A DNA stretch of 64,000 nt from Candidatus Shapirobacteria bacterium. Lineage in GTDB: Bacteria > Patescibacteriota > Microgenomatia > UM-FILTER-40-11. Below are positions 11,949 to 42,453 of the stretch, piece after piece. How positions within the stretch are numbered: position 1 is the first letter of the stretch; each line of letters starts with the position of its first letter. Position numbers and translations under genes: made by a program. The stretch is taken from positions 100,797 through 164,796 of the forward strand of contig JAGVBK010000004.1 of assembly GCA_020059745.1 (NCBI GenBank). The letters run 5' to 3'. The notes beneath the pieces were generated by a model that ran no database searches, was not told the DNA's origin, and saw only the letters and a program-made list of their open reading frames with translations.

Positions 11949-11971
11949 TTAATTAACTATAGGACAAATTT

Positions 11972-18579: not shown

Positions 18580-18581
18580 TG

Positions 18582-18654
18582 GTGCGCCCAGGAGGAATTG
18601 AACCCCCAACCTTTTGGACCGCAACCAAATGTTCTATCCGTTGAACTATGGGCG
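18582..18654 (-). tRNA. tRNA-Arg (anticodon read as GCG)
   Basis: Reverse-complement: acceptor GCGCCCA, D-arm GTTCAACGGATAGAAC, anticodon stem TTTGG/CCAAA with loop TTGCGGT, T-loop TTCAATT. An anticodon of GCG is unusual and should be confirmed. Confidence 0.6.
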
Positions 18655-18704
18655 CATTTAATTTGTAGCTTCTATATTATACCAGAATTCAGCCTTAAAT
18701 AGGC

Positions 18705-21224: not shown

Positions 21225-21320
21225 TGCGTTTTTGCGGAGAGGGTGGGAGGGTGTGCGCTTGCTTTGCAATGCTCCGTTAATCCCGCCCTTCCTTGATGCG
21301 TTTTTGCGGAGAGGGTGGGA
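21225..21320. repeat. ~72-bp repeat unit, copy C, at the 3' end of tRNA-Ser(TGA), with a 24-bp flanking duplication
   Basis: TGCGTTTTTGCGGAGAGGGTGGGA + core GGGTGTGCGCTTGCTTTGCAATGCTCCGTTAATCCCGCCCTTCCTTGA + TGCGTTTTTGCGGAGAGGGTGGGA, followed by TTCGAACCC of the tRNA. Confidence 0.55.
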
Positions 21321-21393
21321 TTCGAACCCACGGAGAACTTGCGTCCTCAATAGTTTTCAAGACTATCGCACTAGACCACTATGCGACCTCTCC
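21307..21393 (-). tRNA. tRNA-Ser(TGA)
   Basis: Reverse-complement: acceptor GGAGAGG, anticodon loop CTTGAAA, long variable arm, T-arm GGGTTCGAATCCC. Confidence 0.8.
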
Positions 21394-21406
21394 TTCTATA
21401 GGATAG

Positions 21407-21490
21407 AAATAAATTAGCGGAGAGTGTGGGAGTCGAACCCACTCGGCGCTTTCGCACCGCAAGTTTAGCAAACTTGTGCCTTACCGTCCG
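21407..21490 (-). tRNA. tRNA-Ser(GCT)
   Basis: Reverse-complement: acceptor GGAGAGT, anticodon loop TTGCTAA, long variable arm, T-arm GGGTTCGACTCCC. Confidence 0.75.
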
Positions 21491-21537
21491 GCCCACTCTC
21501 CAGGATACCCATATTATACCCAAATTCACCTTTAAAT

Positions 21538-22260: not shown

Positions 22261-22707
22261 ATGAAAATCGTAAACAAAAAAGCAGGGTTTGATTATGAAA
22301 TCTCAGAGAAGATTGAGGCTGGCGTGGCCTTAACCGGAGCTGAAGTTAAATCGCTTTTTTCCGGCCAGGCAAGCTTGGATGAAGCTTATGTAAAAATAAT
22401 TGACGGAGAGGCTTTCTTAATTAATGCCCATATCCACCCATACCAATACGCCGATACCCGAAAAATTGATCCTAAGCGCACCAGAAAGCTTCTGCTTCAC
22501 AAAAAAGAGCTGCTTTCCCTTATTAATAAAATAAAGCAGAAAAATTTGATCATAATCCCCCTCTCGTGGTATAATATTGGTCACCAAATCAAGCTTGAGA
22601 TAGCCTTAGCCAAAGGTAAGAAAAAATGGCAAAAAAAAGAAGCTATTAAAAAGCGAGACTTGGAGAGGGAAATAGAACAAACAATCGGCAAAAAGATTAA
22701 AAACTAA
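22261..22707 (+). CDS. smpB: SsrA-binding protein SmpB
   Basis: KAGFDYEI...GVALTGAEVKS...LLLHKKE match SmpB. tmRNA lies immediately downstream. Confidence 0.9.
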   Translation: MKIVNKKAGFDYEISEKIEAGVALTGAEVKSLFSGQASLDEAYVKIIDGEAFLINAHIHPYQYADTRKIDPKRTRKLLLHKKELLSLINKIKQKNLIIIPLSWYNIGHQIKLEIALAKGKKKWQKKEAIKKRDLEREIEQTIGKKIKN

Positions 22708-22791: not shown

Positions 22792-23165
22792 AGGGGATGC
22801 ACTGGTTTCGACGGGAAGCGCTCTTTTAAAACTGCAAGCCTCCTTTGAATCACAGGAGTAAAAAAGATTCAAAAAAGAAAAGACAACGATTATTCTGTTG
22901 CCCCTAGCGTTAACTACAACGTTAACTACGCTTTTGCGTAAATAGGCATCTTTAAAATTTCTTGCTTGCCGGAAGCTTAAAGGTGTAAACAAAGACAAGA
23001 CGCAGGCTGCTGGTTTGCCAAACACCAGTTGCCAAAGCCTAAGTTTGGCAACCTCTAGCTTTCCAGGTTAACGGATCAGGCTAGAGGTAAAAAAGTTAAC
23101 CTAAGCTTGTAGAAGTTTTAAATTAGACTTTTCGGATTCCGGTTCAATTCCGGACATCTCCACAC
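22792..23165 (+). ncRNA. ssrA: tmRNA (SsrA)
   Basis: 5' end GGGGATGCACTGGTTTCGACGGG. A tag reading frame ends ...VAPSVNYNVNYAFA with TAA at 22939-22941. A T-arm-like TCCGGTTCAATTCCGGA is followed by the 3' acceptor CATCTCC-A. CCA is not encoded. Confidence 0.75.
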
Positions 23166-26373: not shown

Positions 26374-28086
26374 TTACTTTTGCATTATATTAAAAAGAGC
26401 TGACTTTAAACTGATTGCGCCCGGCGCTCTTAAGTTAAAGACATGCTTAAATTCCTCGCCGGTGAATTCCTTTCTTCCTTTGTCTGTATCAATGTAAACC
26501 TTAGAGGTATAACCATCATTTGAATAGAAAACTTCGACATTATTGATTTTTGCAACCGGGCCGCCGTGTTTTGACGCTTCGGCTGCCATTTTATCCTTGC
26601 TCCAGCCTTCCTGGTCATAAAGACACCGGTCAGTAGGAAAGATGCCGCTCACATCGCCGCCGTTTGAATAAATAAGAGCAGCGTTAACAATGTCAGCAAA
26701 CTCCGTCTCGGTTAGCCAGGGGTGGCTTCTTCCGCATGTCTGGGCCGAGCGTGTTTTGTACCAAGCTTTGTAAAACCAAGGAGACTCTGCCACTTTTTCA
26801 TAAGCCTGGCTGGTCCAACCGCTTCTGCCATTAGACGTATCCCAGAGCCCGGGGGTTGTATGGCCATTGTGGGAATAAGAATAGGTATAACCGCCCGCAG
26901 TTGAGGCATACCAAGCAGAAAAAGGTTTACCGCCGGCAACCAGAACCCAACCCCTGGTGGCATTAACCGCTTCGTCCCATTTGCCGCCTTTATTGGCTGG
27001 TTTGTAAACTTGACAGGATTCAGTCGCACAAATTGAGCCTGCACCATTATTTGTATAGGCCAGGGCATAAGAACGGGCTGCCACTGCCTGGGCCTTAAGA
27101 GCCTCAAATCCACCTTTATCCCCCCACGAAGTAGGCATTTCATAAATTCTTTTAACATAAGTTTCTATATCAACCGTTCCGTAACCCTGAACAGTAATAT
27201 TAATTCCGGTTGAATAATCCTTTTTAAGCTCTACCCCACCATAGTAGGCACGAAGAATCTCTTCTGCTGATTGCCCGGATTTTGCCCGACCGTAAGCGCC
27301 GTACTGGCTCATTCCTTTGCGGTGCGGAGCACCAAAAGAAAAGGCAGCAAAAGCAGGCGAAAAACCAGGGTTATAGTCAGGCCGTGAAGCCGGATCATCA
27401 GCCAAAGGCACATCACCAACAGAAGTAGAAAAACCGCCTTCTTTCATGGCCAAAAGCTCTTTTTGTTTTGCTTTTATCTTGGCAAAAAATCCCTCTGTTT
27501 TTTCAACCTCCCCTTCTAAAAATTCAACTTGTTTGCTTGCCTGTGCTTTAAGCGAAGACAGAGAAGCCTGGTTCTTTTTCAAAGACTCTTTATCGTTTTT
27601 TAAAGTCACCAGTTTTTGGGAAATTGAAGTAATTATCTGCCAATCCTGCTGGGCAGCAGTGCGGCGCAAGGCAAGGCCCTGGCTAAAATCTGAAACAGAT
27701 TTTGAGGAAAGAAGCAAAGTTAAAATATTAAACTCCCTTTCTCTTTTATACATTTCTCTTAGCCTGGCAGATAAAAGTTCTTCCTGGTCTCCCAAGTCTT
27801 CTTCTCTAACTTTAATTTCTTTTTCTGTTTCTTTGAATTGCCTGTCCAGACTTGCCAGTCTGGCATTAAAAGAAGCAAGCTGTTTTTTGTATGTTTCCAG
27901 GTCGGTTTTATTTTTTTCGTGAGCATCTTTTCTGGCATCATACTCACGCTGAAGCTCGGCAACTTGGCAGTCCCAATCAGTTGCCGGACAACCCTGGGCC
28001 TTAACGGAAAAGCTAATAAAGAAAGCGGTTGCCAGTAATCCTAAAAAAAAGAGCAAAAATAACCTTAGCTTATTATGAAGAGACAT
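26374..28086 (-). CDS. SpoIID/LytB-domain protein with an N-terminal coiled coil
   Basis: Signal peptide, a long coiled coil, then the SpoIID/LytB signature GFEALKAQAVAARSYAL. Confidence 0.6.
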   Translation of the reverse strand: MSLHNKLRLFLLFFLGLLATAFFISFSVKAQGCPATDWDCQVAELQREYDARKDAHEKNKTDLETYKKQLASFNARLASLDRQFKETEKEIKVREEDLGDQEELLSARLREMYKREREFNILTLLLSSKSVSDFSQGLALRRTAAQQDWQIITSISQKLVTLKNDKESLKKNQASLSSLKAQASKQVEFLEGEVEKTEGFFAKIKAKQKELLAMKEGGFSTSVGDVPLADDPASRPDYNPGFSPAFAAFSFGAPHRKGMSQYGAYGRAKSGQSAEEILRAYYGGVELKKDYSTGINITVQGYGTVDIETYVKRIYEMPTSWGDKGGFEALKAQAVAARSYALAYTNNGAGSICATESCQVYKPANKGGKWDEAVNATRGWVLVAGGKPFSAWYASTAGGYTYSYSHNGHTTPGLWDTSNGRSGWTSQAYEKVAESPWFYKAWYKTRSAQTCGRSHPWLTETEFADIVNAALIYSNGGDVSGIFPTDRCLYDQEGWSKDKMAAEASKHGGPVAKINNVEVFYSNDGYTSKVYIDTDKGRKEFTGEEFKHVFNLRAPGAISLKSALFNIMQK

Positions 28087-28143: not shown

Positions 28144-28539
28144 ATGTTTAGGAAAGCAAAGAAAACATTAATGACCTTAGTTGGTCTTTTTTTCTTTTTT
28201 ACCCAAACAGCAACAACTGCCTTTGCCGGCTGTCAGGATAACGAGGTAAGAACCGCACTTGGCTGTATTCCGGTCGGGTCAGAAGTTGGTAGCCTTAACG
28301 AGTTTGTTGGATGGATAATTGGAAGGGCTATCTTTGTGGGCTCAGGAATCGCTTTCTTACTTATGGTCCTTGGCAGTTTCCAAATTTTAACTTCAGCAGG
28401 AAACCCCGAAAAGGCAAGAGCGGGAAAAGAAGTTTTAACCAGCGCAGTAAGTGGCCTTTTGTTTATAATATTTTCAATATTCTTACTAAGATTAGTCGGC
28501 GTGGACATACTCCACATCCCAGGCCTTGGGGCTAACTAA
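28144..28539 (+). CDS. TrbC/VirB2-like (T4SS_pilin family) pilin paralog 1
   Basis: Signal/TM segment, then a helical hairpin with the shared motif SAGNPEKA...SAVSGLLFIIFSIFLLRLVGVDIL. Confidence 0.55.
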   Translation: MFRKAKKTLMTLVGLFFFFTQTATTAFAGCQDNEVRTALGCIPVGSEVGSLNEFVGWIIGRAIFVGSGIAFLLMVLGSFQILTSAGNPEKARAGKEVLTSAVSGLLFIIFSIFLLRLVGVDILHIPGLGAN

Positions 28540-28888
28540 AAAACTAGTTATGAAAACAGAACTGGCACAAGTTGATTTTGAAGTAATCCAAAACTATATT
28601 CCTGGATTAAAATCAGAATTTGGAATAGATAATAACGAACCTGCTGCCCAAATAGTTTTTAATCTTATTGACAGAATCCTTCCTGTTGTTTTTATTATTG
28701 CAGGACTCCTTCTCTTCTTTTACCTTATTGCCGCAGGGTTTCAGATGATGACCTCGCCCGGCGACGAAAAAGCTGCTGCTTCCGCAAAAGCGAAGATTAC
28801 CAATGCCTTGGCTGGGTTTTTAATTCTTTTTGTTTCTTTTTGGCTAGTGAAGCTTTTGGGGTATATCTTAGGGCTTGATTTAATCTAA
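28526..28888 (+). CDS. TrbC/VirB2-like pilin paralog 2
   Basis: Shared motif MTSPGDEKAAASAKAKITNALAGFLILFVSFWLVKLLGYILGLDL. Confidence 0.55.
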   Translation: MGLTKKLVMKTELAQVDFEVIQNYIPGLKSEFGIDNNEPAAQIVFNLIDRILPVVFIIAGLLLFFYLIAAGFQMMTSPGDEKAAASAKAKITNALAGFLILFVSFWLVKLLGYILGLDLI

Positions 28889-29593
28889 TTACTTGCCAAA
28901 CCTTCTTTGTCTTCTTTGGTATTCCAAAATTGCCCTATCAAGCTCTTTTGGACCAAAGTCCGGCCATAAGGTGTCGGTAAAATAAAGCTCAGAGTAAGAA
29001 AGCTGCCACAAAAGGAAATTTGAAAGCCTAACCTCTCCTCCTGTTCTTATAATTAAGTCGGGGTCGGGCTGGCCGTTGGTGTAAAGGTGTTTAGAAACCA
29101 GCTCCTCATTTACTTTGTCAGCCGGAACGCCTTCTTTGATAATTTCTTTTATTGCTCTCACAATCTCGTCCCTTCCGCCGTAGTTTAAAGCTAAGTTAAC
29201 CTTTATTCTTTCGTTTTTTAAAACAATTTTAAGCATTTCGCTGATTGCCCGGGCTACTCTTCGCGGAAAAGCCTGAAAATTACCTAAAACAAAAAGTTTT
29301 ATCCCTTCTTTTTCATAGTCTTCTTTTTTTTCTTTGACAATTCTTAAAAGCAAGTCAAAAATGCCGGCAACTTCTTTGGTGGTTCTTTTGCGCCAATTTT
29401 CCGTTGACAAGGTGTAAACCGTCAGGTTCTTTACTCCTAATTCTTTGCACCTTTCCACAATTCTATCAAGATTTCTGGCGCCTTCTTCATGACCTTTATT
29501 GGCGTCTAAATCTCTTTTATCCGCCCAGCGCCTGTTCCCGTCCATAATTATGGCAATGTGGTGAGGTATTGCTTTTTTGTCAATTTTTTCCAT
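28889..29593 (-). CDS. uppS: Undecaprenyl diphosphate synthase (isoprenyl transferase)
   Basis: HIAIIMDGNRRWA and the C-terminal RTGGEVRLSNFLLWQ. Confidence 0.9.
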   Translation of the reverse strand: MEKIDKKAIPHHIAIIMDGNRRWADKRDLDANKGHEEGARNLDRIVERCKELGVKNLTVYTLSTENWRKRTTKEVAGIFDLLLRIVKEKKEDYEKEGIKLFVLGNFQAFPRRVARAISEMLKIVLKNERIKVNLALNYGGRDEIVRAIKEIIKEGVPADKVNEELVSKHLYTNGQPDPDLIIRTGGEVRLSNFLLWQLSYSELYFTDTLWPDFGPKELDRAILEYQRRQRRFGK

Positions 29594-29644
29594 TTTTTCC
29601 CTTGCAAGAAAAAAATTTTAACACCAAGCTCTCAAAGCACAACT

Positions 29645-30712
29645 TTAATAATCACGATGAAGAACAAAGTCAACGGCAAGTCTTAAGTTTTTTCTGGCAG
29701 GATTATTTTCTAAAAACAAAAGTTCATTGTCAAAGTATTCTTTTGCTTCTTCGGCGAGGTTTTCAGCAATATTCTGAGCATAACTAAGGCTGCCATAACT
29801 TTTCATCATCTCAATTACCTTTAAAACCTCTTTTTCTGTTTTTTCCTCCTTGTTTTTTTCTAAAATTACTTTGAGCTTTTCTTTATCCTTTTTTTTAGCT
29901 GCCTTTAGCAGGTGCATTAACATTAAAGTTCTTTTGCCTTCAATTATATCGCTTCCTTTTTGCTTTTTAAGACCCTTAAAATCAGAAGTTAGATCAAGAA
30001 GGTCGTCTTTAATCTGAAAACACCGCCCCAAAAGCTGGCCAAAGAAGTAAAGCTTTTTTAGCTCGTTTTTATCTGCATTCCCGATAATGGCTCCAAGCCT
30101 CATTGGTCCGGCAATGGTGTAGTAGGAGGTTTTACCGTCAAGAATTAAAAAAATATCTTCATTCTCTAACTCAGTTTTATTCTCTTTTGCCCATTTTATT
30201 TCCACGGTCTGGCCAAAAGTAGTTCTTTTTAGCATTTGGTAAAACTCACAAGCAACTTCTTCTGCTTTTTTAGGGCCCAAAACTTTGGTGTTATCCCAAA
30301 GCATTTTCCACATTAAAACATGAAGGCTGTCGCCGGCATTAATAGCCAACTCTTTTCCATAAATCCTGTGCAAGGCAGGCGCTCCCCTTCTTTGCAAAGA
30401 ATCATCCTCAAAATCGTCATGGATAAGAATCCAATCTTCAGAGGTCTGCATGGCCGCAGCTGTTTTCAAGGCCGTTTTTTCCTGTGCCCCCATTGCTTCA
30501 GCTGTTAAAAGAAGCAAAGTGGGTCTTATGTATTTTCCTCTTCTTTCGGGATATGCAGAAGTAATTTCCCTATGGAAAGAAAGAAGGTCTTTATATTTTT
30601 CAGCAATTTCTGGGTTTTCTGGAAAGAAATTAAGGTCAGACAAATACTTTTCAATCTCTTTCCAAACAAATTCTTTTTTTTCTTTTAAGACCTCTTCAAA
30701 AGCACTTGGCAT
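29645..30712 (-). CDS. Trans-polyprenyl diphosphate synthase (IspA/IspB family)
   Basis: First DDxxD in LIHDDFEDD, second in FQIKDDLLD. Confidence 0.85.
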   Translation of the reverse strand: MPSAFEEVLKEKKEFVWKEIEKYLSDLNFFPENPEIAEKYKDLLSFHREITSAYPERRGKYIRPTLLLLTAEAMGAQEKTALKTAAAMQTSEDWILIHDDFEDDSLQRRGAPALHRIYGKELAINAGDSLHVLMWKMLWDNTKVLGPKKAEEVACEFYQMLKRTTFGQTVEIKWAKENKTELENEDIFLILDGKTSYYTIAGPMRLGAIIGNADKNELKKLYFFGQLLGRCFQIKDDLLDLTSDFKGLKKQKGSDIIEGKRTLMLMHLLKAAKKKDKEKLKVILEKNKEEKTEKEVLKVIEMMKSYGSLSYAQNIAENLAEEAKEYFDNELLFLENNPARKNLRLAVDFVLHRDY

Positions 30713-30752
30713 AAGTAGCTAATTTTAGCATTTAGTTGCAATCTGTTTTTGC

Positions 30753-31124
30753 TTGTTGTTTAATCAATTAAAAGAGTTTATAAAAATGAAAAAGCTTCTT
30801 TCAGTAAATATCGGTGAACAATGGTTAATAAGTCCGGACAAAACAATAGCCGAGGCTGAACAATTTGATTCCCCAGGTGCCCTTATCTCGATTATTTTAA
30901 AAAATGTCTATACGCTTGCCGGAATTCTTCTTTTGGTTTTATTGATTTTCGGTGGCATTTCCATTATCATAGGCGCAGGTGAAAACGATCCAAAAAGGGC
31001 AGCTCAAGGCAAAAAAACAATCATTACTGCCCTAACCGGATTTTTAGTTATTTTTACCAGTTATTGGATAATACAATTAATTAGTTATATAACCGGAGTT
31101 CAAATTCTAAACCCATTAATTTAA
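30753..31124 (+). CDS. TrbC/VirB2-like pilin paralog 3
   Basis: GAGENDPKRAAQGKKTIITALTGFLVIFTSYWIIQLISYITGVQIL. Confidence 0.55.
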   Translation: MLFNQLKEFIKMKKLLSVNIGEQWLISPDKTIAEAEQFDSPGALISIILKNVYTLAGILLLVLLIFGGISIIIGAGENDPKRAAQGKKTIITALTGFLVIFTSYWIIQLISYITGVQILNPLI

Positions 31125-31127
31125 AAA

Positions 31128-31487
31128 ATGGCATTACTAGAAGAAGGAACAAGTTTTTTTGGCGATATTGCTGCCCCTCCAGGAGTTGATAAACATGGTG
31201 CGGGCTTTGAAAATGGATTAATGGGCTTTGCCAACACTCTCTTAAAACTTGTCATTCTCGGTGCGGGTCTTTATGCTTTTGTTAACATAATTATCGCTGG
31301 CTATACTTTTCTCGGCGCTGGCGGTGATCCTAAAAAGGTAGAGCAAGCTTGGGCGAAAATCTGGCAATCTTTACTCGGTCTGACCTTTGTGGCAGGCTCG
31401 CTTGTTCTGGCAGGGATCTTTGGCTATTTAGTATTTAAAGATCCCACGGCAATAATTAATCCAAAAATCTATGGTCCAGAAAATTAA
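31128..31487 (+). CDS. TrbC/VirB2-like pilin paralog 4
   Basis: GAGGDPKKVEQAWAKIWQSLLGLTFVAGSLVLAGIFGY. Confidence 0.5.
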   Translation: MALLEEGTSFFGDIAAPPGVDKHGAGFENGLMGFANTLLKLVILGAGLYAFVNIIIAGYTFLGAGGDPKKVEQAWAKIWQSLLGLTFVAGSLVLAGIFGYLVFKDPTAIINPKIYGPEN

Positions 31488-31875
31488 CAAAACCTTCTTG
31501 GCAGCAGGTCCAACTGGAAAACCATTGGGTTCTTTTGAAGGAATCGGACCTTTCGGAACAGGGACCTCCGACTGGTCAGAAACATGCGGCGAGGCCGGCC
31601 AGGCTGGTTGTCTTTTTGCCCAGATACTTTCCTTAATCCTTGGCGTTGTTACAATCATCGCCTTTATCTGGTTTATTATCTCTGTTTTTACCGCTGCTTT
31701 CGGGTTCCTAGCCTCAGGAGGAGATAAAGTTAAAACTCAAAATGCTCAAAAACAACTCACTAATGCTCTTATCGGTCTTGTTTTAATTATTTCTTCGCTC
31801 TTTTTTGTCAAACTGGTGGGAGTGGTTTTTGGAGTTGATGTTCTTTCAATTAATGATTTATTAAACGCCCTATGA
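31471..31875 (+). CDS. TrbC/VirB2-like pilin paralog 5
   Basis: ASGGDKVKTQNAQKQLTNALIGLVLIISSLFFVKLVGVVFGVDVL. Confidence 0.55.
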   Translation: MVQKINKTFLAAGPTGKPLGSFEGIGPFGTGTSDWSETCGEAGQAGCLFAQILSLILGVVTIIAFIWFIISVFTAAFGFLASGGDKVKTQNAQKQLTNALIGLVLIISSLFFVKLVGVVFGVDVLSINDLLNAL

Positions 31876-32216
31876 ACTATACAGATACTGCAGGTAATGC
31901 GGGGAAAATTATAAACCCCATTCTCTCCGATGAGTTAAATGAACTCTCTGGCCAAGCATTTTTCCAGCAATTGGTTAGCACTTTAATTGGATTAGGATTT
32001 GTTGTCGGTGTAATTGTCTTTGTTTTTCTTTTAATTGTCGGAGCAATAAGATGGATTACTTCAAGTGGAGACAAGGCAGCAACCGAAGGGGCGAGAAAAC
32101 AAATTACTAATGCCTTTATAGGCCTTGTGCTTCTTTTTTCTGTTTTTGCTATAATCAGATTGGTAGAAACTATCTTTGGTATTAATATTTTAGAGTTAAC
32201 CATACCAACTCTTTAA
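31872..32216 (+). CDS. TrbC/VirB2-like pilin paralog 6
   Basis: SSGDKAATEGARKQITNAFIGLVLLFSVFAIIRLVETIFGINIL. Confidence 0.55.
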   Translation: MNYTDTAGNAGKIINPILSDELNELSGQAFFQQLVSTLIGLGFVVGVIVFVFLLIVGAIRWITSSGDKAATEGARKQITNAFIGLVLLFSVFAIIRLVETIFGINILELTIPTL

Positions 32217-32227
32217 CCTGAAAGGGG

Positions 32228-32659
32228 GTGAACATGAATAAACTTAGCAAAACACTATTAACTGCTTTTTCTTTTGCAGGCTATGCCATGTTGCTACCTG
32301 CTTCAGTCTTTGCCGAAGATATTAATCTTGGTCCAACTGTTCTGCCAGAAGGTTTTGGAGGAGCCGCTGGAATTACTGTTCAATCTTTTGTTTCAGGAGC
32401 TATAAGATTGCTTTTGGTAGTTGCTGCTTTAGCTTTCTTTTTTATGCTTGTTGTTGGCGGCATTCAGTGGATTTTCTCAGGTGGAGATAAAGCAGCCACG
32501 GAATCAGCTAGAAAGAAAATCACTAACGCTTTAATCGGATTGGCGATTGTTTTTGCCGCTTGGGCAATCGCAGCTTTGATAAAAACTCTTTTTGGGGTTG
32601 ACATTTTAACCTTAGACATTCCGACTTTTACTACAACAGCACCAACTCAGTCCCAATAA
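32228..32659 (+). CDS. TrbC/VirB2-like pilin paralog 7
   Basis: SGGDKAATESARKKITNALIGLAIVFAAWAIAALIKTLFGVDIL. Confidence 0.55.
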   Translation: MNMNKLSKTLLTAFSFAGYAMLLPASVFAEDINLGPTVLPEGFGGAAGITVQSFVSGAIRLLLVVAALAFFFMLVVGGIQWIFSGGDKAATESARKKITNALIGLAIVFAAWAIAALIKTLFGVDILTLDIPTFTTTAPTQSQ

Positions 32660-32746
32660 AGAAGTTTCCGTATTTTGAGAATAAAGCACCGGGAAACCGG
32701 TGCTTTTTGTAAGTTTATTCTCTCTCTATTTTGTGCTAAACTTTAG

Positions 32747-33166
32747 TTGATGAAAAAAATTGTGTCTTTTTTACTTGCTCTTGCAGTTCTCTTTTCTTTT
32801 TCAAACTCCCTTTTTTGTGCCCAGGCACAGGGAACCGAAGAGTGGAGCGACATTGACCAAAAATGCGTGGTAACGGCTGATGACGGGACAACGGTTGCTA
32901 CCATTCAGGGACTCGAATGCCTTTTTATAAACATTACCCGCATTTTAACTCCAATTTTTGGGATTGCTCTTTTTTTTATGCTTGTTGTTGGCGCTTTTCA
33001 GATGATTACCTCCGGAGGCGATCCCAAACAGGCTCAAAAAGCAAGGCAGACAATTACCTACGCTATTTTTGGGTTGATTGCTTTTGTCGGCGTTTGGTTT
33101 ATTCTGAAGCTAATTTATTTTGTCACCGGTGTTGATGTCACCAAATTTGAAATTCCTAGCCTTTAG
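32747..33166 (+). CDS. TrbC/VirB2-like pilin paralog 8
   Basis: SGGDPKQAQKARQTITYAIFGLIAFVGVWFILKLIYFVTGVDV. Confidence 0.55.
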   Translation: MMKKIVSFLLALAVLFSFSNSLFCAQAQGTEEWSDIDQKCVVTADDGTTVATIQGLECLFINITRILTPIFGIALFFMLVVGAFQMITSGGDPKQAQKARQTITYAIFGLIAFVGVWFILKLIYFVTGVDVTKFEIPSL

Positions 33167-33184: not shown

Positions 33185-36118
33185 ATGAAAAAAATATTTA
33201 TTTTCTTTCTGTTTTTAGCCTTCCTTTCTTTTTTAAAACCTGTTTTTGCCTACAGCCAAAACAAAGCAGGAATAAACATTGCCGCCAACCATCACGAACT
33301 TGAAAAAGCAGCTGAAATTGTTGGACCAGGAGGTTGGGTTGTAATCATGGCCTGCCCAAGTGATGGAGATAAAATTGCCAGCTTCATTGCCAGTCATCCG
33401 CAAATAAATGTAGTTGTAAGAGGCCATTTTGCCGGCAATACCCCTAATGCGGATTTAGCTAAATCATGGGCGGCTACACTAGCAAGCATTCCCTCAACAA
33501 ATAAAATCTATTTTGTTCCCTGGAATGAACCAAACCAGGCAGGTACAGCTGATTATGCAACTCCAGAAGAGGTAGTGGGGTTTGTTAGTGACCTAACTTT
33601 AAACTTTCAACAAACTATGGGCAGTTCGTGGAAGAATAAAGTTATTCTCCTCTCTCCGATGATGAACCAAACACATTACAATTTTTCTGATTATGTTCAC
33701 CAAATAAGAGCAGTAAAATCAAGTTTTTTTGGCCAATTTGACGGTATTGCTTTTAGTCTTTATGATCTTTGTGATACTCCCCTTACCTGTGACAGTAAAT
33801 ATCTTAATCCTTTAAAGATCGAGGAAGTGCTAGGAGAAATGGGAGCAACAGGAAAACCAATCTTTGGAATTGAGGCGGGAACGGCTGGTAACAATTTTTA
33901 CTGGAAGATGGCGCCAAGTGCCGGTTCACCCTTGTTTCAGTTTGTTGACAGTTATCTTGACAGGTCTCCAGGATCAGTGAAGATGTTTGCAATTCCCTCT
34001 TATGACCTAGCTGGTGAAGTTGGTCATTCCTGGAGCCTTTTTGACCCTCCTGATGTTGCAAATCTTTTAAGGAGTGCCCCCGACGGGGGCACAACTTCTG
34101 CTTCGGGGGTTAGTCAAAATATCACCATGAAGAAATGTCCTGGCCGAAACTATACCTTTTACGAAAACAGTGAAAGCGAATGCATTGAGTGCGGCGGGAG
34201 CGGCTATTCACTTTTGTCTTGTTTGCCACTTTCGGGAGAAGAATACGGAGAGGAATATAGTAAAGAAACTTTAAAAATTTCAGAAACAGTTGGTTATCAA
34301 AACGACTGTACAACTGTAAATTTTACCGGAAAACTTTCCGCCTCAAATGTCTCCATTCCTTTTGCCAGAAACCTTAACCTCTTTTTCATTGGTCCTTATA
34401 TGGACAACCTGGCTGCCCGAGTGGCAAAACAAAACCCAAACCCAATAAAAGATTACGGCGTAATCGAAAAGATTGCATCTGTAGAACTTCAAGATGATCT
34501 CAGGCTTAAATTTCTTTCAGAAATAACCAACGGCCACCCCACTCGCTATTCTGGTTTTAATATCCAAGGAGTTGGAGCAAACGAACTGGCTTCAAGATTT
34601 AAGAGCATTGATAAAAAAAGAAAAGAAAGAAGAAGATTAACTGAAAATGAAGAAATATTTCTTAAAAAAATTTGGCCACAGGTTCCTCTTTTTGCCAACG
34701 AAGAAACAGACGGCGAAATCATTTTTGAGGGAAGCGGTATAAGCGGCTCAATTAAAACCTCAATACCGGAAGTTTACCGTCTTGATAAAGTTACCCAGCT
34801 TATTGCCCAAATGTTGGGACTGAAAAATAACCACGTTGCCGGCGAACAGGTAATAAATCCGCAGGTCTTAGCCAAAGATTGTGAGAAAACACCTAATCTT
34901 CCGAAAATTGTTAGCGATAAAGAAACTCTTAGCGGCCCTTCAGACCCTGTCTGTACGGATAATAACCTTCAGGAAAATCCTCAAGAAATAATTGAGGGAG
35001 AAAGAACTTATGACCACTCAGACTTTGATACAAGAAATATGGGAGGTTGTGAAGGTAAACCTCCAAATGGCTGTTGCGGAACCGGAGGAAAATGCTTACC
35101 TAAAGGAGACTTAGCCATTCCCGGAGTTTGTTCAGCCGGAGAGTGTGATTGTAAAAGCTGTGATTCTGAGGATTTTTGCTATTCAGGAAGCCATTATCCG
35201 GGATGTGAAGTGCCAAAGCCAGAAAAGACCTTCGATATTGATATTAGTATTAAAAACAGGGTTCCTTTTTTAAAAAGAATTTCAGAAAACACCGTTGGTC
35301 CAAATGGAATTTTCAGAATTTTTGTTCCTCTAAATGAGGACTCTTCCTCTGCAAATAGAATAATCAGCCACGCCTTTCGCGAAGTTGCCGGTGAATCAAA
35401 AGCAAGCCTTGAAATGGACAATTTTCAGGTTAAATCAGCCGTTGGAGTTGAAATCGATCCAGAAAGTAGTCAGGATTTAATCACCTTGCTTTTTCACAAG
35501 CTTGGAACTGTATTTAACGCTAAAAACTTAGTCGCTGGAATGGAACTTTGGCCCTTTGGGCAAGGAGGAACCGTAGCCAACCCTGACCCATTTAGTCCAG
35601 CAGTCTCGGATATCACTAATTTCGAGACCCTTTTTGAAACCATAGGAAACACAATCGGGGTGCCTCCAAAAATTCTGGCTGCGATCATGCAAATCGAAAG
35701 TCCAAGCACCTACAACCTTACTGCTGAACAAATCAACACCTATTCCCAACCAGAAGTTATTATGCCTGGTTGTGGTCCTAACGAGTGTTCGGCTACCGGA
35801 CCGATGCAAATGACAACGGGGATTGATCGCAACGGAAGCCCTTCTTGCTCAGAATGTTGTTGGAAAGGAAAGTGTCTTACTGAATGCCCAAACCAATGGT
35901 CTGTTTACGGACAAGGAAACCCTTGTAACTTAGCTGATAATATTACTGCTGCAGCAAAAAAATTAAAACATGATAGTGGTGCAACCTCAATGGATTGGAC
36001 AAGAGAGCAAGTTTACGAAGCTGCCTACCACTATTACGGCAATTGCACAGTTGCTTATGAAAGATTGGGAAACAGAACCTATTGTGAATTTGTCTGGTGG
36101 TATTACACGGCAAGATAA
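33185..36118 (+). CDS. Large secreted multidomain cell-wall hydrolase with an N-terminal TIM-barrel glycoside-hydrolase-like domain (NEP motif), a Cys-rich middle and a C-terminal lytic-transglycosylase (SLT)-like domain
   Basis: Signal peptide. FVPWNEPNQ resembles the GH5-type NEP catalytic motif. The C-terminal ILAAIMQIESPSTY...GPMQM matches the SLT ES...Q pattern. Many CxxC clusters. Confidence 0.5.
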   Translation: MKKIFIFFLFLAFLSFLKPVFAYSQNKAGINIAANHHELEKAAEIVGPGGWVVIMACPSDGDKIASFIASHPQINVVVRGHFAGNTPNADLAKSWAATLASIPSTNKIYFVPWNEPNQAGTADYATPEEVVGFVSDLTLNFQQTMGSSWKNKVILLSPMMNQTHYNFSDYVHQIRAVKSSFFGQFDGIAFSLYDLCDTPLTCDSKYLNPLKIEEVLGEMGATGKPIFGIEAGTAGNNFYWKMAPSAGSPLFQFVDSYLDRSPGSVKMFAIPSYDLAGEVGHSWSLFDPPDVANLLRSAPDGGTTSASGVSQNITMKKCPGRNYTFYENSESECIECGGSGYSLLSCLPLSGEEYGEEYSKETLKISETVGYQNDCTTVNFTGKLSASNVSIPFARNLNLFFIGPYMDNLAARVAKQNPNPIKDYGVIEKIASVELQDDLRLKFLSEITNGHPTRYSGFNIQGVGANELASRFKSIDKKRKERRRLTENEEIFLKKIWPQVPLFANEETDGEIIFEGSGISGSIKTSIPEVYRLDKVTQLIAQMLGLKNNHVAGEQVINPQVLAKDCEKTPNLPKIVSDKETLSGPSDPVCTDNNLQENPQEIIEGERTYDHSDFDTRNMGGCEGKPPNGCCGTGGKCLPKGDLAIPGVCSAGECDCKSCDSEDFCYSGSHYPGCEVPKPEKTFDIDISIKNRVPFLKRISENTVGPNGIFRIFVPLNEDSSSANRIISHAFREVAGESKASLEMDNFQVKSAVGVEIDPESSQDLITLLFHKLGTVFNAKNLVAGMELWPFGQGGTVANPDPFSPAVSDITNFETLFETIGNTIGVPPKILAAIMQIESPSTYNLTAEQINTYSQPEVIMPGCGPNECSATGPMQMTTGIDRNGSPSCSECCWKGKCLTECPNQWSVYGQGNPCNLADNITAAAKKLKHDSGATSMDWTREQVYEAAYHYYGNCTVAYERLGNRTYCEFVWWYYTAR

Positions 36119-36566: not shown

Positions 36567-38141
36567 ATGAAAAAAAATAATTTTTTTAAGCTACTTATCC
36601 CTGCTTTTATATTTTTCTTCTTTTTTGGGACAAATAAAACCTACGCCTCTATCCCAATCGGCACTGGAGAGGATTGCACAACTTCGCAAGACTGTCTTCG
36701 TGAATATGGTATGGGAACTTGTATAAATAGGGTCTGCGTCACTACTCAAAATGATATTCTTGAATTCCAAAGAGAAGTTGAGGCAGGTAAAAACGGAAAC
36801 CCTAATTTATCCTGGTTCTCAAGTGAAGTGTTTGGCAAGGTTGCTGATGCCGGTGTTTCGGAAATTTTTGGCAATATTCCTGAAGGAGAAACTTCCCAAT
36901 CGTACGTCCCCGGAGGAGTTATCGGAAGCCTGGGGAAAATGCTTTCTTCCTTGTATGCCATTCCTCCGGCTTCTGGAGGAGAATACATTGCCTCCATAAA
37001 AAGAGACCTTGGAGTAGTAAGCCCGGCTTATGCCCAAGGCATAGGCTTTGAAGGCTTAAGGCCAGTTCTTGAAATCTGGAAAACATTCAGAAACATCTCT
37101 TACATATTCTTTGCCCTAATTGCCCTTTATATTGGTTTTGCTATCATGTTCAGACTTAAACTTGACCCAAGAACTGTTATCTCCATTCAAAATTCACTTC
37201 CTAAACTAGTAGTTGCTTTTCTTTTGATTACTTTTTCCTATGCCATTGCCGGACTTCTTATTGATTTGTCTTACATCCTCATGTTTATAATCATGAACAC
37301 AGTCGGAGAAATAACCTTTGGAAGACTTGAGTACGATGGCTTTGCTGATTTTACCAATTTTCTTACAGGCAGGACTTACGATAACAACAACTGGTTTTTT
37401 GTTGGCAGATACCTCGCCCAGGTTATTCTTCTTACTGTTGGCTCGCTACCAAAAATTCTTCCTATTTTGCTCTTTCCGGTAGCTAGGTTAATTTTTGGGG
37501 CCATAATAATCTATGTCTTACTTAAAATCTTATACCAAGTGCTGATATCTTACGTTAATATTGTGCTTCTGGTAATTTTTGCCCCTTTCCAGCTTCTTGT
37601 TTCGGCCTTACCAGGCAATAAAGATGGCACTAAGTGGTTTAGAAATTTAATCGCAAACATTGCAGTTGTACCAACAATACTAACGATGTTCCTTTTGGCA
37701 GGTTATTTTTTAAGCTTCGACGCTTTTAACTTTTCTTCAGAAAACGCTCTTGATGTTATTGAGGCAACGTGGGAGTCGATAAGAGGAATCTTTACTGCGG
37801 ATGGAGCTTTTGCCAGCATCCAAAATGTTCTTACCTGGGCAGCCACTCAGTTAATTGGTTTTGGCCTTTTTGTTATGATCCCTAAAGTAACAGACATGGT
37901 TAAGTACACACTGCAAATTAAGGGTTATGACTTCCCGTCTGCAATCGGCGAAACAATGTCTGGAGCTTATGAAAGAAGTTTTGGCAAAGAAGCTTCCAAA
38001 TATGCCCAAGCGCAAAGGCTGTATGAAAGCAATCCTTGGTTGTATCCCGATCCTTCCACTGTGGGTGCCTTTTCTAGATTTAAAGGTGTGAAAGACTGGT
38101 TTGGCAGAATGGGGGCCAAGACTGAAGGCGGAAGAAAATAA
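36567..38141 (+). CDS. Polytopic membrane protein with a Cys-rich secreted N-terminal domain, possibly VirB6/TrbL-like
   Basis: Signal peptide, a Cys-rich region, then at least six TM helices. Sits inside the pilin / VirB4 cluster. Confidence 0.35.
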   Translation: MKKNNFFKLLIPAFIFFFFFGTNKTYASIPIGTGEDCTTSQDCLREYGMGTCINRVCVTTQNDILEFQREVEAGKNGNPNLSWFSSEVFGKVADAGVSEIFGNIPEGETSQSYVPGGVIGSLGKMLSSLYAIPPASGGEYIASIKRDLGVVSPAYAQGIGFEGLRPVLEIWKTFRNISYIFFALIALYIGFAIMFRLKLDPRTVISIQNSLPKLVVAFLLITFSYAIAGLLIDLSYILMFIIMNTVGEITFGRLEYDGFADFTNFLTGRTYDNNNWFFVGRYLAQVILLTVGSLPKILPILLFPVARLIFGAIIIYVLLKILYQVLISYVNIVLLVIFAPFQLLVSALPGNKDGTKWFRNLIANIAVVPTILTMFLLAGYFLSFDAFNFSSENALDVIEATWESIRGIFTADGAFASIQNVLTWAATQLIGFGLFVMIPKVTDMVKYTLQIKGYDFPSAIGETMSGAYERSFGKEASKYAQAQRLYESNPWLYPDPSTVGAFSRFKGVKDWFGRMGAKTEGGRK

Positions 38142-38148: not shown

Positions 38149-40215
38149 CTACATTCCAAATCTTTTCCTGTTTCTTTTTATCCTTCTTCTAATGATTTCT
38201 CTCCTGCCAAAGTATTTATCCATTCTCATGTGCTTTCCTAAATTATTCGGATTATTTAAATTCACGCCGTTTAAATCTTTAAAAGCTTTTTCTCTTGCTT
38301 TCTTAACAGGCATTTCCATTGTCGCATACAGCCTGTCATCTCCCAAAACCTGGGTAAGTATAAGATCATAATGTTCATAGCTTATATTAAGCAAAATGTC
38401 TGAGGAATAGTTAGCAGGCCCTTGCATCATGCCAATTACCGCCCCTTCAAGAAGTTCAATATCAGAATAAACATCTGAAAGTAATTTAGACCGTCCTGTC
38501 CTTAGCTTTGACAGTGCCGTTGCCAATTCTTGGACTGTCGGGTTTTTAGCTTTACTTTGGATTATGTAATATATTCTTTTTGCCGAATCCATCAAATCGC
38601 CGTAGCCTGGCCAAAGCTCTCCGCTTCCAATTTTACTAAGGCCGACATCTTCAGGATTAACATAATCAAAAAGGCCTGACCCGGGTTCAATTTCTTTTTT
38701 CCTTGAGAGAACCAGGGTTTGAGCTAAGGTAGGAGGAGTTTCTCTTCTTTTTTTGTCTCCTTCCCCAACGTTTGTTAAATCAAACAGGCTAAAAAACATT
38801 CTCTTTGGCATAAAATTAATTTTGCCTTCTTCAAATTTTTTTCTGAATTTTAGATCATGCCTTATTCTCTCTGCGTACCAATCGCCAAGATTCCCCCCCC
38901 AACTTTCATCTGTTCCAAAGTCTTCTTTGCCTGTAAGCCACTTACCACGACCTTTGTCTTGTGGTCTAAAAAAAGCCCTTATCTGTTCTGCGTATACATT
39001 TCCATTTCTTATATGTCTTCCCACATCGCCTGAGTCAGGTGCGTTTCCTACAAAAATTAGATTCCAGGCAACTGAAAAAGCAGCCAAGGCCGATACTTCA
39101 GGCGACGAATCAGGACCTCCCATCGTGTTTTCTGGAGTTAAAAGTTCGGGGTTCTCTTTAAAGTATTTTGTTAATTTATCAACAAACTTTTCTTTATAAT
39201 CGTCAAAGTTAGTTAACTCCTCAAGTCCTTTTTTGTCTACATATAAACTTCCAGTGTTACTTAAGAGAAAAAAATCATTAAACATTGTTGCCATGGCAAT
39301 CCTAAAACCAGGCATGTGGTTCCACATAGTAATTAAGGCTTCTTTATTAACTCTAATATCTCTCCTGTCTGTATAGTCATCAAGGCTTAAGTGGGCAGCT
39401 TCCCTTTTAATATAACTTCCCAAAAGAATTCCCAACCTAGTCCTAATTACATTTTTCCACCTTTCCGGTAAACGATCATACCAAACAGGAGGCTGAGTAT
39501 CAAAAAGTTGAACATTTAAACCTGCCTGAGCCGACTCTGCAGAAACAAGACCGCTATAACCCGTAACCCTAAAAGCTTCATATTGTTCCCTTTGCATCTC
39601 TATTGTTTCAGCCTGAAACTGGTCTTGCCGCGAAAGGCTTCTTTCCTCAATTCTAATTATCTGGTCAAGTTTCTCGGCAAGTTGATTGTCAGGCGAACGA
39701 GAGGTAGGGCTTTCCTCAACAGGGGTTTGTGTGAGACTGTTTCTTAGAAGATTAAGTCTTTCTTCAGCATACCATCTTATAACCCCATAGTGGGGGTCAT
39801 CTTCAGAAAGACCCCATTCCTTGTCTAAATCTCTTGCTTGTCTTCTTTCTTCTCTTATATCCTCTGCGGTAAGACGCCCTTCTCTTTTTTTTGCCTCTAG
39901 ATCTTGGAGTACATCCGTAAAAGGCTTAAAAGCTCCCTCGTCTTGTAAGTCTTGTACAAGACCTTGTATTCTCCCTCTTACTTCACTGATCACATCGTTA
40001 ATCTTTCTTTTTTCTTCCTCTTCAGTTGTTTTTCTCAAACGGGAGAGAAGCCGCTCTCTTTCTTTTAAGGCATCAATAAAAGACAGTTCGCTTACTGGCT
40101 TTTTGCTGGACTCTGGATTAACTGTTTGTCCTAGTTCTGATTTATTCATATTTTCACTTGGTTGACTATCGACACTTTCGGGCATGGTACTAAAATTATA
40201 GCAAAAATCAAGCAA
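38149..40215 (-). CDS. Hypothetical protein, 688 aa, with an acidic/coiled N-terminal third and a basic C-terminal tail
   Basis: Clean long ORF on the opposite strand inside the T4SS-like cluster. No motif recognised. Confidence 0.4.
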   Translation of the reverse strand: MLDFCYNFSTMPESVDSQPSENMNKSELGQTVNPESSKKPVSELSFIDALKERERLLSRLRKTTEEEEKRKINDVISEVRGRIQGLVQDLQDEGAFKPFTDVLQDLEAKKREGRLTAEDIREERRQARDLDKEWGLSEDDPHYGVIRWYAEERLNLLRNSLTQTPVEESPTSRSPDNQLAEKLDQIIRIEERSLSRQDQFQAETIEMQREQYEAFRVTGYSGLVSAESAQAGLNVQLFDTQPPVWYDRLPERWKNVIRTRLGILLGSYIKREAAHLSLDDYTDRRDIRVNKEALITMWNHMPGFRIAMATMFNDFFLLSNTGSLYVDKKGLEELTNFDDYKEKFVDKLTKYFKENPELLTPENTMGGPDSSPEVSALAAFSVAWNLIFVGNAPDSGDVGRHIRNGNVYAEQIRAFFRPQDKGRGKWLTGKEDFGTDESWGGNLGDWYAERIRHDLKFRKKFEEGKINFMPKRMFFSLFDLTNVGEGDKKRRETPPTLAQTLVLSRKKEIEPGSGLFDYVNPEDVGLSKIGSGELWPGYGDLMDSAKRIYYIIQSKAKNPTVQELATALSKLRTGRSKLLSDVYSDIELLEGAVIGMMQGPANYSSDILLNISYEHYDLILTQVLGDDRLYATMEMPVKKAREKAFKDLNGVNLNNPNNLGKHMRMDKYFGRREIIRRRIKRNRKRFGM

Positions 40216-41466: not shown

Positions 41467-42453
41467 ATGCAGCAACATCCGGTTCCTCAACCAATTACCA
41501 GCTACGAGTTTCACTTAGTGGGAGATATGACCTTAAAGCAGTTTGGCAAGCTGGCTGCTGGAGTTGTCTTGGCTTTAATTGTTTATGCTTTTAATCCTCC
41601 TGCTTTGTTTAAATGGCCTCTTGTTTTCATTTTTGTCAGTCTTGGTGCTGGCTCTGCTTTTATCCCTTTTGAAGGCAGGCCAATTGATACTTGGATTTTT
41701 GCGTTTTTTAAAAGAATTTATTCTCCAACCCAATATGTTTGGCGTCAAGGGGGAGCGGTGCAATCAATTCCTTCAATAAATAAAGAGCAGACAAGTCAAA
41801 AAAACACCTTTCAAAGTTCAATTCACCCAGGTATCGGATTTAAGCCTCCCACAATACATATGCCAAATTTAAACATTAAAAACACTGTTTCTCTCTTTAG
41901 TAAAAAAAATGAAGCTAGTCCTGATGAAAAAGAAGCAAACCCGCCAAAAGAAACACAAAAAGAACAAAAAGAAAACCAAAAACCAGCCTCGCAAACAATA
42001 GTCTTAAGTAGAACTCCTGCTTCCCCTCCTGCCGGTCCAACAAAAACTTTTCAAGCTCATACCCAGCAAGCCGTTAGCACAGGAACAATTCTTAAGCCTC
42101 CTTCTCTTCCAAAATTTTCTCCTCCAACTCAAATTATTCAGCCAAAAGTGGAAGCAAAATTTGTGCCCTCAGCCATTATTCCCGCAACGCCAACTATGTC
42201 AAACTTGCTTGTTGGTTTTGTCCATACTCCTGACGGAAAAATCGTTGAAAATGCCATTTTGGAGGTCAGAGACCCCCAGGGAACTCCGGTGCGGGCTTTT
42301 AAAACCAACAAGCTTGGCCAATTCAGAAGCGCTACTCCCCTTCCTAATGGTTCTTATGAGATAGAAACAGAAAAAGAAGGCTTCAGATTTGATATAATCA
42401 AAGTTGAGCTCAAAGGCGAAATTTTATCGCCTATTGAAATCGTCAGCAAATAG
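41467..42453 (+). CDS. Membrane protein with two N-terminal TM helices, a Pro/Lys-rich linker and a C-terminal carboxypeptidase-regulatory-like beta-sandwich (possible VirB3/PrgI-like T4SS component)
   Basis: A TM hairpin (LAAGVVLALIVYAF...LVFIFVSLGAGSAF). The C-terminal GFVHTPDGKIVENAILEVRD...GSYEIETEKEGF looks like a CarboxypepD_reg fold. Confidence 0.35.
   Translation: MQQHPVPQPITSYEFHLVGDMTLKQFGKLAAGVVLALIVYAFNPPALFKWPLVFIFVSLGAGSAFIPFEGRPIDTWIFAFFKRIYSPTQYVWRQGGAVQSIPSINKEQTSQKNTFQSSIHPGIGFKPPTIHMPNLNIKNTVSLFSKKNEASPDEKEANPPKETQKEQKENQKPASQTIVLSRTPASPPAGPTKTFQAHTQQAVSTGTILKPPSLPKFSPPTQIIQPKVEAKFVPSAIIPATPTMSNLLVGFVHTPDGKIVENAILEVRDPQGTPVRAFKTNKLGQFRSATPLPNGSYEIETEKEGFRFDIIKVELKGEILSPIEIVSK

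Follow-up and report, generated by a model that had tools for sequence, protein, structure and literature searches.

Why should one bacterium carry eight different genes for small pilin-like proteins, side by side and all different from one another? The question is raised by a 64,000-nucleotide stretch of the Candidatus Shapirobacteria assembly GCA_020059745.1 (contig JAGVBK010000004.1, positions 100,797 to 164,796; hereafter the window, whose own numbering is used throughout), in which eight short open reading frames (ORFs) occupy the + strand at 28144-33166, upstream of the genes of a type IV secretion system (T4SS). Here we denote the genes of the window pil1-pil8 and the array positions, or orthogroups, to which they belong p1-p8. 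We are highly confident of the identity of the eight genes, as members of the pilin family PF18895 (T4SS_pilin). Beyond this, we propose, with a probability of roughly 60%, that they encode distinct, anciently diverged subunits of an origin-proximal monoderm T4SS of the MPF-FATA-like kind, which co-assemble into a heteromeric pilus or conduit. For the heteromeric filament taken by itself, our confidence is lower than for the statement as a whole.

The array consists of two groups, pil1-pil2 at 28144-28888 and pil3-pil8 at 30786-33166. A first-pass annotation, made from the nucleotide sequence, had described eight tandem paralogs of 114-143 amino acids (aa), with the second group starting at 30753 and several reading frames overlapping or abutting. 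The eight ORFs lie where it had placed them, on the + strand. The starts chosen by the gene caller and by NCBI are shorter for four genes (pil2 at 28550, pil3 at 30786, pil7 at 32234 and pil8 at 32750), which brings the sizes to 112-141 aa and removes the overlap of pil1 with pil2; pil4/pil5 (17 nt) and pil5/pil6 (4 nt, ATGA) do overlap. A strong Shine-Dalgarno sequence precedes pil7 alone among the eight (32214-32233, aaagggggtgaac-ATG, containing aaagggggtg), suggesting that pil7 may be the most highly translated subunit. Scanning 27.9-33.4 kb for promoters and terminators showed no enrichment over shuffled sequences (14 sites versus 9.1 +/- 3.3, and 3 terminators versus 6.7) and yielded no operon boundaries. 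The locus is found with 100% identity over 20.4 kb in GCA_003599075.1 ('Candidatus Microgenomates bacterium', C4578_00165 onward), where the pilins are annotated as hypothetical proteins.

All eight proteins match PF18895 (E 6.8e-10 to 3.6e-4), and the matches span the 71-position model from positions ~6-17 to 68-71. The gathering score of 26.6 bits is reached by six of them: pil2 (28550-28888, 112 aa, 29.6 bits), pil3 (30786-31124, 112 aa, 31.2 bits), pil5 (31471-31875, 134 aa, 26.6 bits), pil6 (31872-32216, 114 aa, 29.3 bits), pil7 (32234-32659, 141 aa, 32.2 bits) and pil8 (32750-33166, 138 aa, 39.3 bits). The two that score below it are pil1 (28144-28539, 131 aa, E 5.3e-5, 23.6 bits; identical to C4578_00165) and pil4 (31128-31487, 119 aa, E 3.6e-4, 21.0 bits), which we group with the others because a hidden Markov model (HMM) built from the window's proteins, and their own orthologs, join them. 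Of the window's 636 six-frame ORFs with 40 aa or more, this HMM retrieved just the eight, and PF18895 itself is matched by 120 of 121 homologs. Counts of array members made at the Pfam threshold miss genes of the p1 and p4 types, so that published array sizes may be underestimates. The eight also match NF045849, the 'Mbov_0395 family pilin-like conjugal transfer protein' of Mycoplasma integrative and conjugative elements (ICEs), with E values from 1.5e-7 (pil2) to 0.026; none attains its 40-bit cut-off (14-31 bits; best pil2, 31.0, and pil6, 30.1). Judged by these scores, they are relatives of this equivalog family, not members of it.

Within the array, pairwise identity ranges from 13 to 47%; pil6 and pil7 form the closest pair (47%) and pil4 is the most divergent paralog, 13-29% identical to the other seven. 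A loop motif, S/T-G-G-D-P-K..A..K.ITNAL.GL, describes the consensus of the loop and the beginning of helix 2. The first-pass annotation had taken a similar (S/A)GGD-K motif to be conserved; it holds as a consensus, and two glycines are the only residues of the alignment that are invariant in all eight. The C-terminal GVDIL that it had also reported is better written G(V/I/L)x(I/V)L, which is found in seven proteins and is missing in pil4.

Every one of the eight contains two strongly hydrophobic segments (mean Kyte-Doolittle value of at least 1.9 in a 13-residue window) separated by a loop of ~14 residues. The loop carries three or four K/R residues (+3 or +4), and the tails at both ends are neutral or have a net negative charge; by the positive-inside rule, the loop is predicted to be cytoplasmic and both termini to be outside. 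An AlphaFold2 model of pil8, computed from a 121-sequence alignment and numbered on the 139-aa ORF that starts at 32747, consists of helix (55-88), loop and helix (93-127) with pLDDT 83-90, preceded by a signal-peptide helix and a disordered stretch. The two-helix hydrophobic hairpin is common to all, as had been claimed at first pass, and the signal segment that had been claimed along with it is not: classical signal peptides with AxA-type sites are present in pil1 (..TAFA|GC), pil7 (..VFA|ED) and pil8 (..AQA|QG) only, and pil2-pil6 begin with a hydrophilic, net-acidic tail, pil3 with a short MKKLL.. N-terminus. Among the 120 homologs listed, five have a hydrophobic N-terminus and about 115 are without a long leader. 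Many pilins of the p3 to p6 types have a short conserved M-x-x-L-L-A-Q start in place of a signal peptide (28 of these 120 homologs, e.g. P0010, P0025, P0044 and P0047); we noticed that it resembles the end of an AxA|Q signal peptide minus the hydrophobic core. In pil1 the signal peptide is followed by a short N-domain with a Cys pair and the sequence TALGCIP, and then by the hairpin; in pil8 a conserved Cys pair precedes helix 1. The conserved Cys pairs of the p1 and p8 N-domains would fit an extracytoplasmic location.

How the eight genes relate to one another became apparent from comparison with related contigs (L004, L006/L007, L008, L009, L010 and L011). Five complete contigs show the same 2+6 layout with exactly eight pilin ORFs, and L009, truncated at one end, has 1+6. 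Between genomes, the best BLASTP match of a pilin lay at the same array position in 304 of 330 cases, the exceptions being mostly p6 proteins that matched p7. Over 87 alignment columns, proteins of one position from different genomes share on average 38-59% identity, versus 29% for the paralogs of one genome (maximum 52% across the seven loci). UPGMA clusters follow position except for two merges, of p2 with p3 and of most p6 with p7, so that the p6 and p7 orthogroups are partly confounded; apart from this partial closeness no recent duplicates were seen. The genomes compared are not closely related: identity to the window is 65-78% for uppS in five loci (40% in L011), 38-74% for the SpoIID-domain protein encoded beside pil1 and ~74% for VirB4, and the pilin orthologs are 33-72% identical at the protein level, from which it follows that synonymous sites are saturated.

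Several positions have signatures of their own. The p4 orthogroup is the most conserved (mean ortholog identity 59%) and is marked by N-terminal FFGxIxPPxGV and C-terminal NPKIYGP; 184 clusters of this type were found, at ~46-77% identity, and those that are named belong to Microgenomates or Shapirobacteria, apart from one 'Clostridia bacterium'. Orthologs of p3 are 45-61% identical to pil3 and mostly begin with M-x-x-LLAQ, p5 proteins carry the N-terminal motif FEG(I/L)GP(F/L)G, and p8 proteins the Cys pair. The p1 orthologs always have a signal peptide, together with TALGCIP, and in four of five related loci they contain a variable Cys-rich insert of up to ~140 aa. Judged by these comparisons, the eight are old paralogs held at fixed positions, each position constituting an orthogroup.

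The family to which they belong is large, and it includes proteins in which several hairpins are joined. A family profile retrieved 75,992 cluster representatives at E <=1e-3 and 12,325 at <=1e-10, and many of the top matches are single polypeptides with 2-17 hairpin units. Among the examples (P0121, P0123, P0135, P0140, P0145 and P0245) are chains of 1775 aa with 17 units and of 1147 aa with 11 units; the fusion sequences include one with six hairpins after a signal peptide, one with eleven hairpins and a Cys pair before each, and one that joins a p1-type unit and two p2-like units. The six-hairpin gene, confirmed on its contig (L068, 1777-3435), sits within an array of single-hairpin pilin genes. 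Head-to-tail fusion of this kind requires, topologically, that both termini of a hairpin lie on the same side of the membrane, and by Rosetta-stone logic it implies that different hairpins work in one assembly. Co-expression and co-assembly of the eight are favoured because the frames overlap or abut and because such natural single-chain fusions exist.

Based on these features we propose the following mechanism. Each protein would enter the cytoplasmic membrane such that the loop faces inward and the two ends outward, pil1, pil7 and pil8 through Sec and the other five independently of a signal peptide, possibly through YidC. The VirB4-driven machinery would then extract the hairpins from the membrane, and these would co-assemble outside the cell into a single heteromeric pilus or conduit in contact with the host cell. 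The p1 protein, with its signal peptide and variable Cys-rich N-domain, may be the tip or adhesive subunit, and pil7, which has the only strong ribosome-binding site, may be the abundant structural subunit; these two are the candidates for distinct roles. By analogy with Southlakia epibionticum, the system probably serves a host-dependent lifestyle rather than conjugation.

The machinery that such a mechanism calls upon is encoded 3.4-16 kb downstream of the array, so that the T4SS context expected of pilin genes is present. Transcribed in the same direction as the pilins are genes for a VirB6-like polytopic membrane protein (36567-38141, 524 aa, with ~7 hydrophobic segments), which is so named from its position and topology, had no match in Pfam or NCBIfam and has counterparts of 29-43% identity at this position in six related loci; a PrgI/VirB3-like protein (41467-42453) with two transmembrane (TM) segments, a PF12666 match (E 1.9e-5, 25.6 bits; cut-off 27) and a C-terminal CarboxypepD_reg-like domain (PF13620); a TrsD/TraD-like protein (42492-43169, 225 aa) that resembles the N-terminal domain of VirB4 (NF041427, E 6.5e-10; NF045975, E 2.1e-8); and a VirB4 ATPase of the monoderm CD1110 type (43156-45156; NF045971, 401.8 bits with a cut-off of 325; PF19044, E 1.9e-27; PF12846). 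The Mycoplasma ICE ATPase model NF045975 is matched by VirB4 as well as by the TrsD-like protein. A 1241-aa protein (45131-48856, + strand), which has two TM segments and, at its C-terminus, a CHAP peptidoglycan hydrolase domain (PF05257, E 1.1e-5), would take the VirB1/PrgK role. No relaxase or VirD4-type coupling protein was found in Pfam scans of the large ORFs of the window, a search that used Pfam only and no MOBscan profiles.

In full, the order of genes after pil8 is: the 977-aa protein, a 134-aa single-TM protein, the VirB6-like protein, a 688-aa protein on the - strand (38149-40215), a 322-aa protein, the PrgI-like and TrsD-like proteins, VirB4, the CHAP protein, a Big_5 (bacterial Ig-like) protein, dnaN and dnaA. 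The last two (49482-52172, - strand; PF00712, PF02767 and PF02768, and PF00308 and PF08299, respectively) place the T4SS locus next to the replication origin. The 977-aa protein, encoded directly after pil8 (33185-36118, + strand), carries a signal peptide and had no match in Pfam, NCBIfam or the PDB sequences. Motifs picked out in it by eye, a GH-A-like 'NEP' and an SLT-like 'ES..GPMQ..AYHYYG', were dropped for want of such a match. A large unannotated protein is encoded at this position in all related loci, with similarity detectable to that of L008 alone (23%). The opposite-strand protein at 38149-40215 likewise keeps its position in all related loci, where it is of ~700 aa, with no detectable similarity and no family match. 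Both evolve fast and are candidates for host-specific factors.

Whether the proteins should be called TrbC/VirB2-like, as they were at first pass, is a separate matter. PF04956 (TrbC) matches pil7 only (E 0.12), reaches E < 0.1 in four of 121 family members, and scores on the family at the level of unrelated membrane families. Alignment of the family with seven plasmid VirB2/TrbC proteins by hhalign gave a probability of 0.6% (P 0.098), which is not significant and no better than reversed controls (P 0.022-0.45), the VirB2 alignment being narrow (alphaproteobacterial) and sensitivity accordingly limited; the two helices and the loop between them do fall in register. A search of all PDB sequences with the family profile found no pilin, and its best match was the TM segment of a viral glycoprotein (E 0.009). 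The part of the label that stands is the pilin part: the T4SS_pilin profile and the T4SS context bear it out, and direct similarity to VirB2/TrbC is not demonstrable by sequence. The name pilin is based on family (Pfam), topology and association with a T4SS, and we class the eight with PF18895 and the arrays of Patescibacteria rather than with TrbC/VirB2 in the strict sense.

The array is interrupted by two isoprenoid genes on the - strand, uppS, encoding undecaprenyl diphosphate synthase (28889-29593; PF01255, E 3.4e-81), and a polyprenyl (trans-prenyl) diphosphate synthase gene (29645-30712; PF00348, E 1.2e-53). The first-pass annotation had them as a convergent pair splitting the array; both are indeed on the opposite strand, convergent with pil1-pil2 only and divergent from pil3-pil8. 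A - strand block lies between the pilin groups in every related locus of the L004-L011 set and always includes uppS, its extent varying from uppS alone (L006 and L010) to a complete mevalonate pathway with an ECF sigma factor (L009); the polyprenyl synthase is found at this place in some of these loci only. The pil2 and uppS genes meet tail to tail, stop codon against stop codon (28886-28891), leaving no room for a terminator, and the convergent p2/uppS junction is kept in 12 related loci, with a gap of 0-10 nt in most. On the other side of the pair, divergent from pil1, is the gene for a PcsB-like coiled-coil cell-wall protein with a SpoIID domain (26374-28086, - strand; PF08486, E 8.2e-16; PF24568), and SpoIID stands beside p1 in most of the related loci that extend far enough. 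An uppS-anchored scan of species-representative genomes added six Shapirobacteria-like loci (L013-L018), in all of which p2 and p1 follow immediately after uppS, tail to tail, with SpoIID nearby and directly beside p1 in four of the six, and in which the six-gene pilin block is not within 10 kb. Judged from gene order, the stable unit is SpoIID, p1, p2 and uppS, which happens to adjoin the six-gene block and the T4SS in the lineage of the window. The isoprenoid genes between the pilin groups are no random insertion, and the linkage of p1-p2 to uppS may be functional or merely inherited synteny.

Several observations weigh against a heteromeric pilus. In Shapirobacteria-like genomes p1-p2 are found away from the other pilin genes and, at least once, from those of the T4SS as well, so that these two do not have to act together with the remaining six. 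VirB2, TrbC and TraA typically have a long leader that is cleaved off, and such a leader is missing from five of the eight proteins and from about 115 of the 120 listed homologs. Similarity to VirB2/TrbC escapes both hhalign and the profile search of PDB sequences, and fold searches do not discriminate when the fold is a helical hairpin. The roles assigned to individual subunits derive from sequence features only. No monoderm T4SS is known to form pili. According to the literature, no pilus made of these proteins has been seen in any Patescibacterium (PMC10633639, PMC12857230).

Of the other explanations, the one that survives best holds that the hairpins stay in the cytoplasmic membrane as parts of a translocation channel or stalk, comparable to the small two-TM proteins of conjugation systems in Gram-positives, and that there is no extracellular pilus. 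We consider this unlikely, though it has to be taken seriously. The absence of detectable VirB2/TrbC homology and of signal peptides from most members agrees with it, as does the monoderm type of VirB4. The nearest curated relatives are the pilin-like proteins of Mycoplasma ICEs, again from monoderms, which suggests that the hairpin is native to monoderm MPF-FATA-type systems. The chains of 2-17 fused hairpins, moreover, look like polytopic membrane proteins, but with both termini directed outward they are still compatible with a filament. Surface exposure and interaction are suggested by the Cys-pair N-domains and the variable Cys-rich inserts of p1, and eight or more different small subunits in one channel would be unprecedented.

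A second explanation, which we judge improbable, is that the genes encode interchangeable pilin variants, one serving as the major pilin at a time, and form a repertoire for antigenic or host-range variation that arises by duplication and recombination. Such variation has been raised for Patescibacteria (PMC12102498), and the great divergence of the paralogs (13-47%) would suit it. However, the same eight, in the same number and order, are kept in genomes as distant as the uppS and SpoIID comparisons indicate, without recent duplicates save for the partial closeness of p6 and p7; because the eight positions are conserved as orthogroups, the genes are better regarded as non-redundant subunits than as an antigenic repertoire with rapid turnover. 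The overlapping frames of pil4/pil5 and pil5/pil6 imply co-translation, and the fused multi-hairpin proteins imply simultaneous use. Two further assemblies from this population are nearly identical over 1.7-1.9 kb containing pil1 and pil2 (0 and 1 nt of difference), which also argues against a repertoire. The first-pass annotation had offered antigenic or functional diversification, or a heteropolymeric pilus; in light of the conserved orthogroups, antigenic variation by recent expansion becomes less likely and functional specialisation or heteromeric assembly is favoured. With eight fixed orthogroups and natural fusions, the question turns from antigenic variation to how a heteromeric assembly is built.

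The linkage to uppS and the polyprenyl synthase allows one more elaborate version of the heteromeric conduit, in which the eight hairpins would be obligate and stoichiometric, the tail-to-tail position of uppS and the isoprenoid block of variable size between the pilin groups would stem from a functional coupling, and pilin extraction or the packing of the pilus would use a polyprenyl-phosphate lipid in place of phospholipid. Pili of the VirB2 and TraA type contain phospholipid, and the version is invoked for organisms unable to make phospholipids of their own; we regard it as a long shot. Very improbable, too, is the early reading of the six-gene array of Nanosynbacter lyticus TM7x, under which the proteins would be Sec-secreted soluble T4SS effectors: the wording of the TM7x preprint (10.1101/2022.03.25.485537) and the signal peptides of three of the eight speak for it, but every member has two long hydrophobic helices predicted to form a membrane hairpin, five of eight are without a signal peptide, and all match a pilin family profile. 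That the eight are small membrane proteins of some unrelated type (holins, bacteriocins or immunity peptides, for example) lying near a T4SS by chance is hardly credible, for although they are small two-TM proteins with noise-level matches (e.g. Lysis_col, E 0.27), neither Pfam nor PHROGs gave a holin or bacteriocin match, there is no phage context, the PF18895 matches are consistent across all eight and the T4SS synteny is conserved, so that a holin, bacteriocin or phage identity is rejected.

Elsewhere in the window we noted several further features. A possible defence or mobile island (5255-13531) lies beside tRNA-Asn (13457-13531); it contains a nucleotidyltransferase with SMODS and AGS_C domains (5951-7369, - strand) flanked by two uncharacterised ORFs, a LexA-like S24 repressor (7974-8567), an N6/N4 DNA methylase (8570-9496), a BglI-like restriction endonuclease (9516-10367, - strand) and a large serine recombinase (11972-13498). 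Two tRNA clusters, Ser-GGA, Arg-CCG, Ser-CGA and Arg-GCG (18132-18655) and Ser-TGA and Ser-GCT (21306-21501), contain segments of ~165 nt that are 85% identical to each other, and a tmRNA gene (22793-23163) adjoins smpB (22261-22707). Beyond dnaA, a pair of O-antigen ligase-like and polysaccharide-export genes (54350-57050) stands beside genes for an RNase H/RVT_3 protein (57077-57499) and a 998-aa DUF4012 protein (57547-60543).

Arrays of this kind have been described before. Quinonero-Coronel et al. (2025, PMC12102498) reported MPF-FATA-related T4SSs in most classes of Patescibacteria, often beside dnaA and mostly without a relaxase, with arrays of 2-11 VirB2-like pilins (mean identity 25%, maximum 54%) that are abundant in Microgenomatia; for these arrays they put forward the idea of variation, citing the tandem VirB2 genes of Bartonella, Anaplasma and Rickettsia as an analogy. 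Their main text has no mention of the 2+6 layout or eight orthogroups, of the p1-p2/uppS/SpoIID unit or of multi-hairpin fusions, and the present assembly is not among the entries of the text supplements. Wang et al. (2023, PMC10633639) found that the pilin series SEML1_0006-0019 and the T4SS are essential in Southlakia epibionticum, and in the TM7x transcriptome preprint (10.1101/2022.03.25.485537) the equivalent array was called 'six putative effector genes'. A 2025 review (PMC12857230) treats the Patescibacteria as the one exception to the absence of VirB2 from Gram-positive systems and puts forward, as speculation, a role of the pilus as a conduit leading to the host. The Patescibacteria T4SS with its pilin array is counted among the most intriguing members of the T4SS superfamily; an epibiont cannot do without it, and it may prove to be the first T4SS of a monoderm that forms pili (PMC10633639, PMC12857230).

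Compared with these arrays (PMC12102498, PMC10633639), the locus of the window shows no difference in kind: it shares PF18895, divergent paralogs that are in tandem or split by non-pilin genes, and a chromosomal MPF-FATA-like T4SS with VirB4, TrsD, PrgI and a VirB6-like protein, without a relaxase and near dnaA, and has eight members versus six in Southlakia. With VirB2, TrbC and TraA (PF04956; e.g. VirB2 of A. tumefaciens) the eight have in common ~70-90 mature residues, two hydrophobic helices with a short loop, termini predicted to be outside and the loop inside, and a place beside VirB3- and VirB4-type genes. They differ in showing no significant similarity, in mostly having no long leader, in a longer loop with GGDPK..K and in the monoderm host; the VirB2-type systems have one major pilin, which polymerises with stoichiometric lipid into an extracellular pilus and in the P and T types is cyclised head to tail, whereas here there are eight obligate paralogs. 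Closer in family is Mbov_0395 (NF045849), the sole NCBIfam model matched by all eight, over most of its 80 positions, and likewise comprising small hairpin proteins of a monoderm MPF-FATA-type system; in ICEs it serves conjugation in the presence of a relaxase, whereas here no relaxase was found and the gene has been multiplied eightfold.

The VirB2 arrays of Bartonella, Anaplasma and Rickettsia are alike in that divergent pilin genes stand in a row by a T4SS in a host-dependent bacterium. They are thought to serve antigenic or host-surface variation, whereas number, order and orthology are conserved here, and both family and envelope type differ. Type IV pili and type II secretion systems are built from sets of major and minor pilins or pseudopilins, distinct subunits of low identity that share a hydrophobic assembly module. 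The likeness to these is functional only: some of their subunits carry additional extracellular domains, as the Cys-rich insert of p1 might be, but they have a single N-terminal helix with a globular domain, a prepilin peptidase and other machinery, and no homology is implied. Set among these systems, the locus is of the published Patescibacteria kind and a clean Microgenomates example of it; what it adds is the eight fixed orthogroups, the p1-p2/uppS unit and the multi-hairpin fusions.

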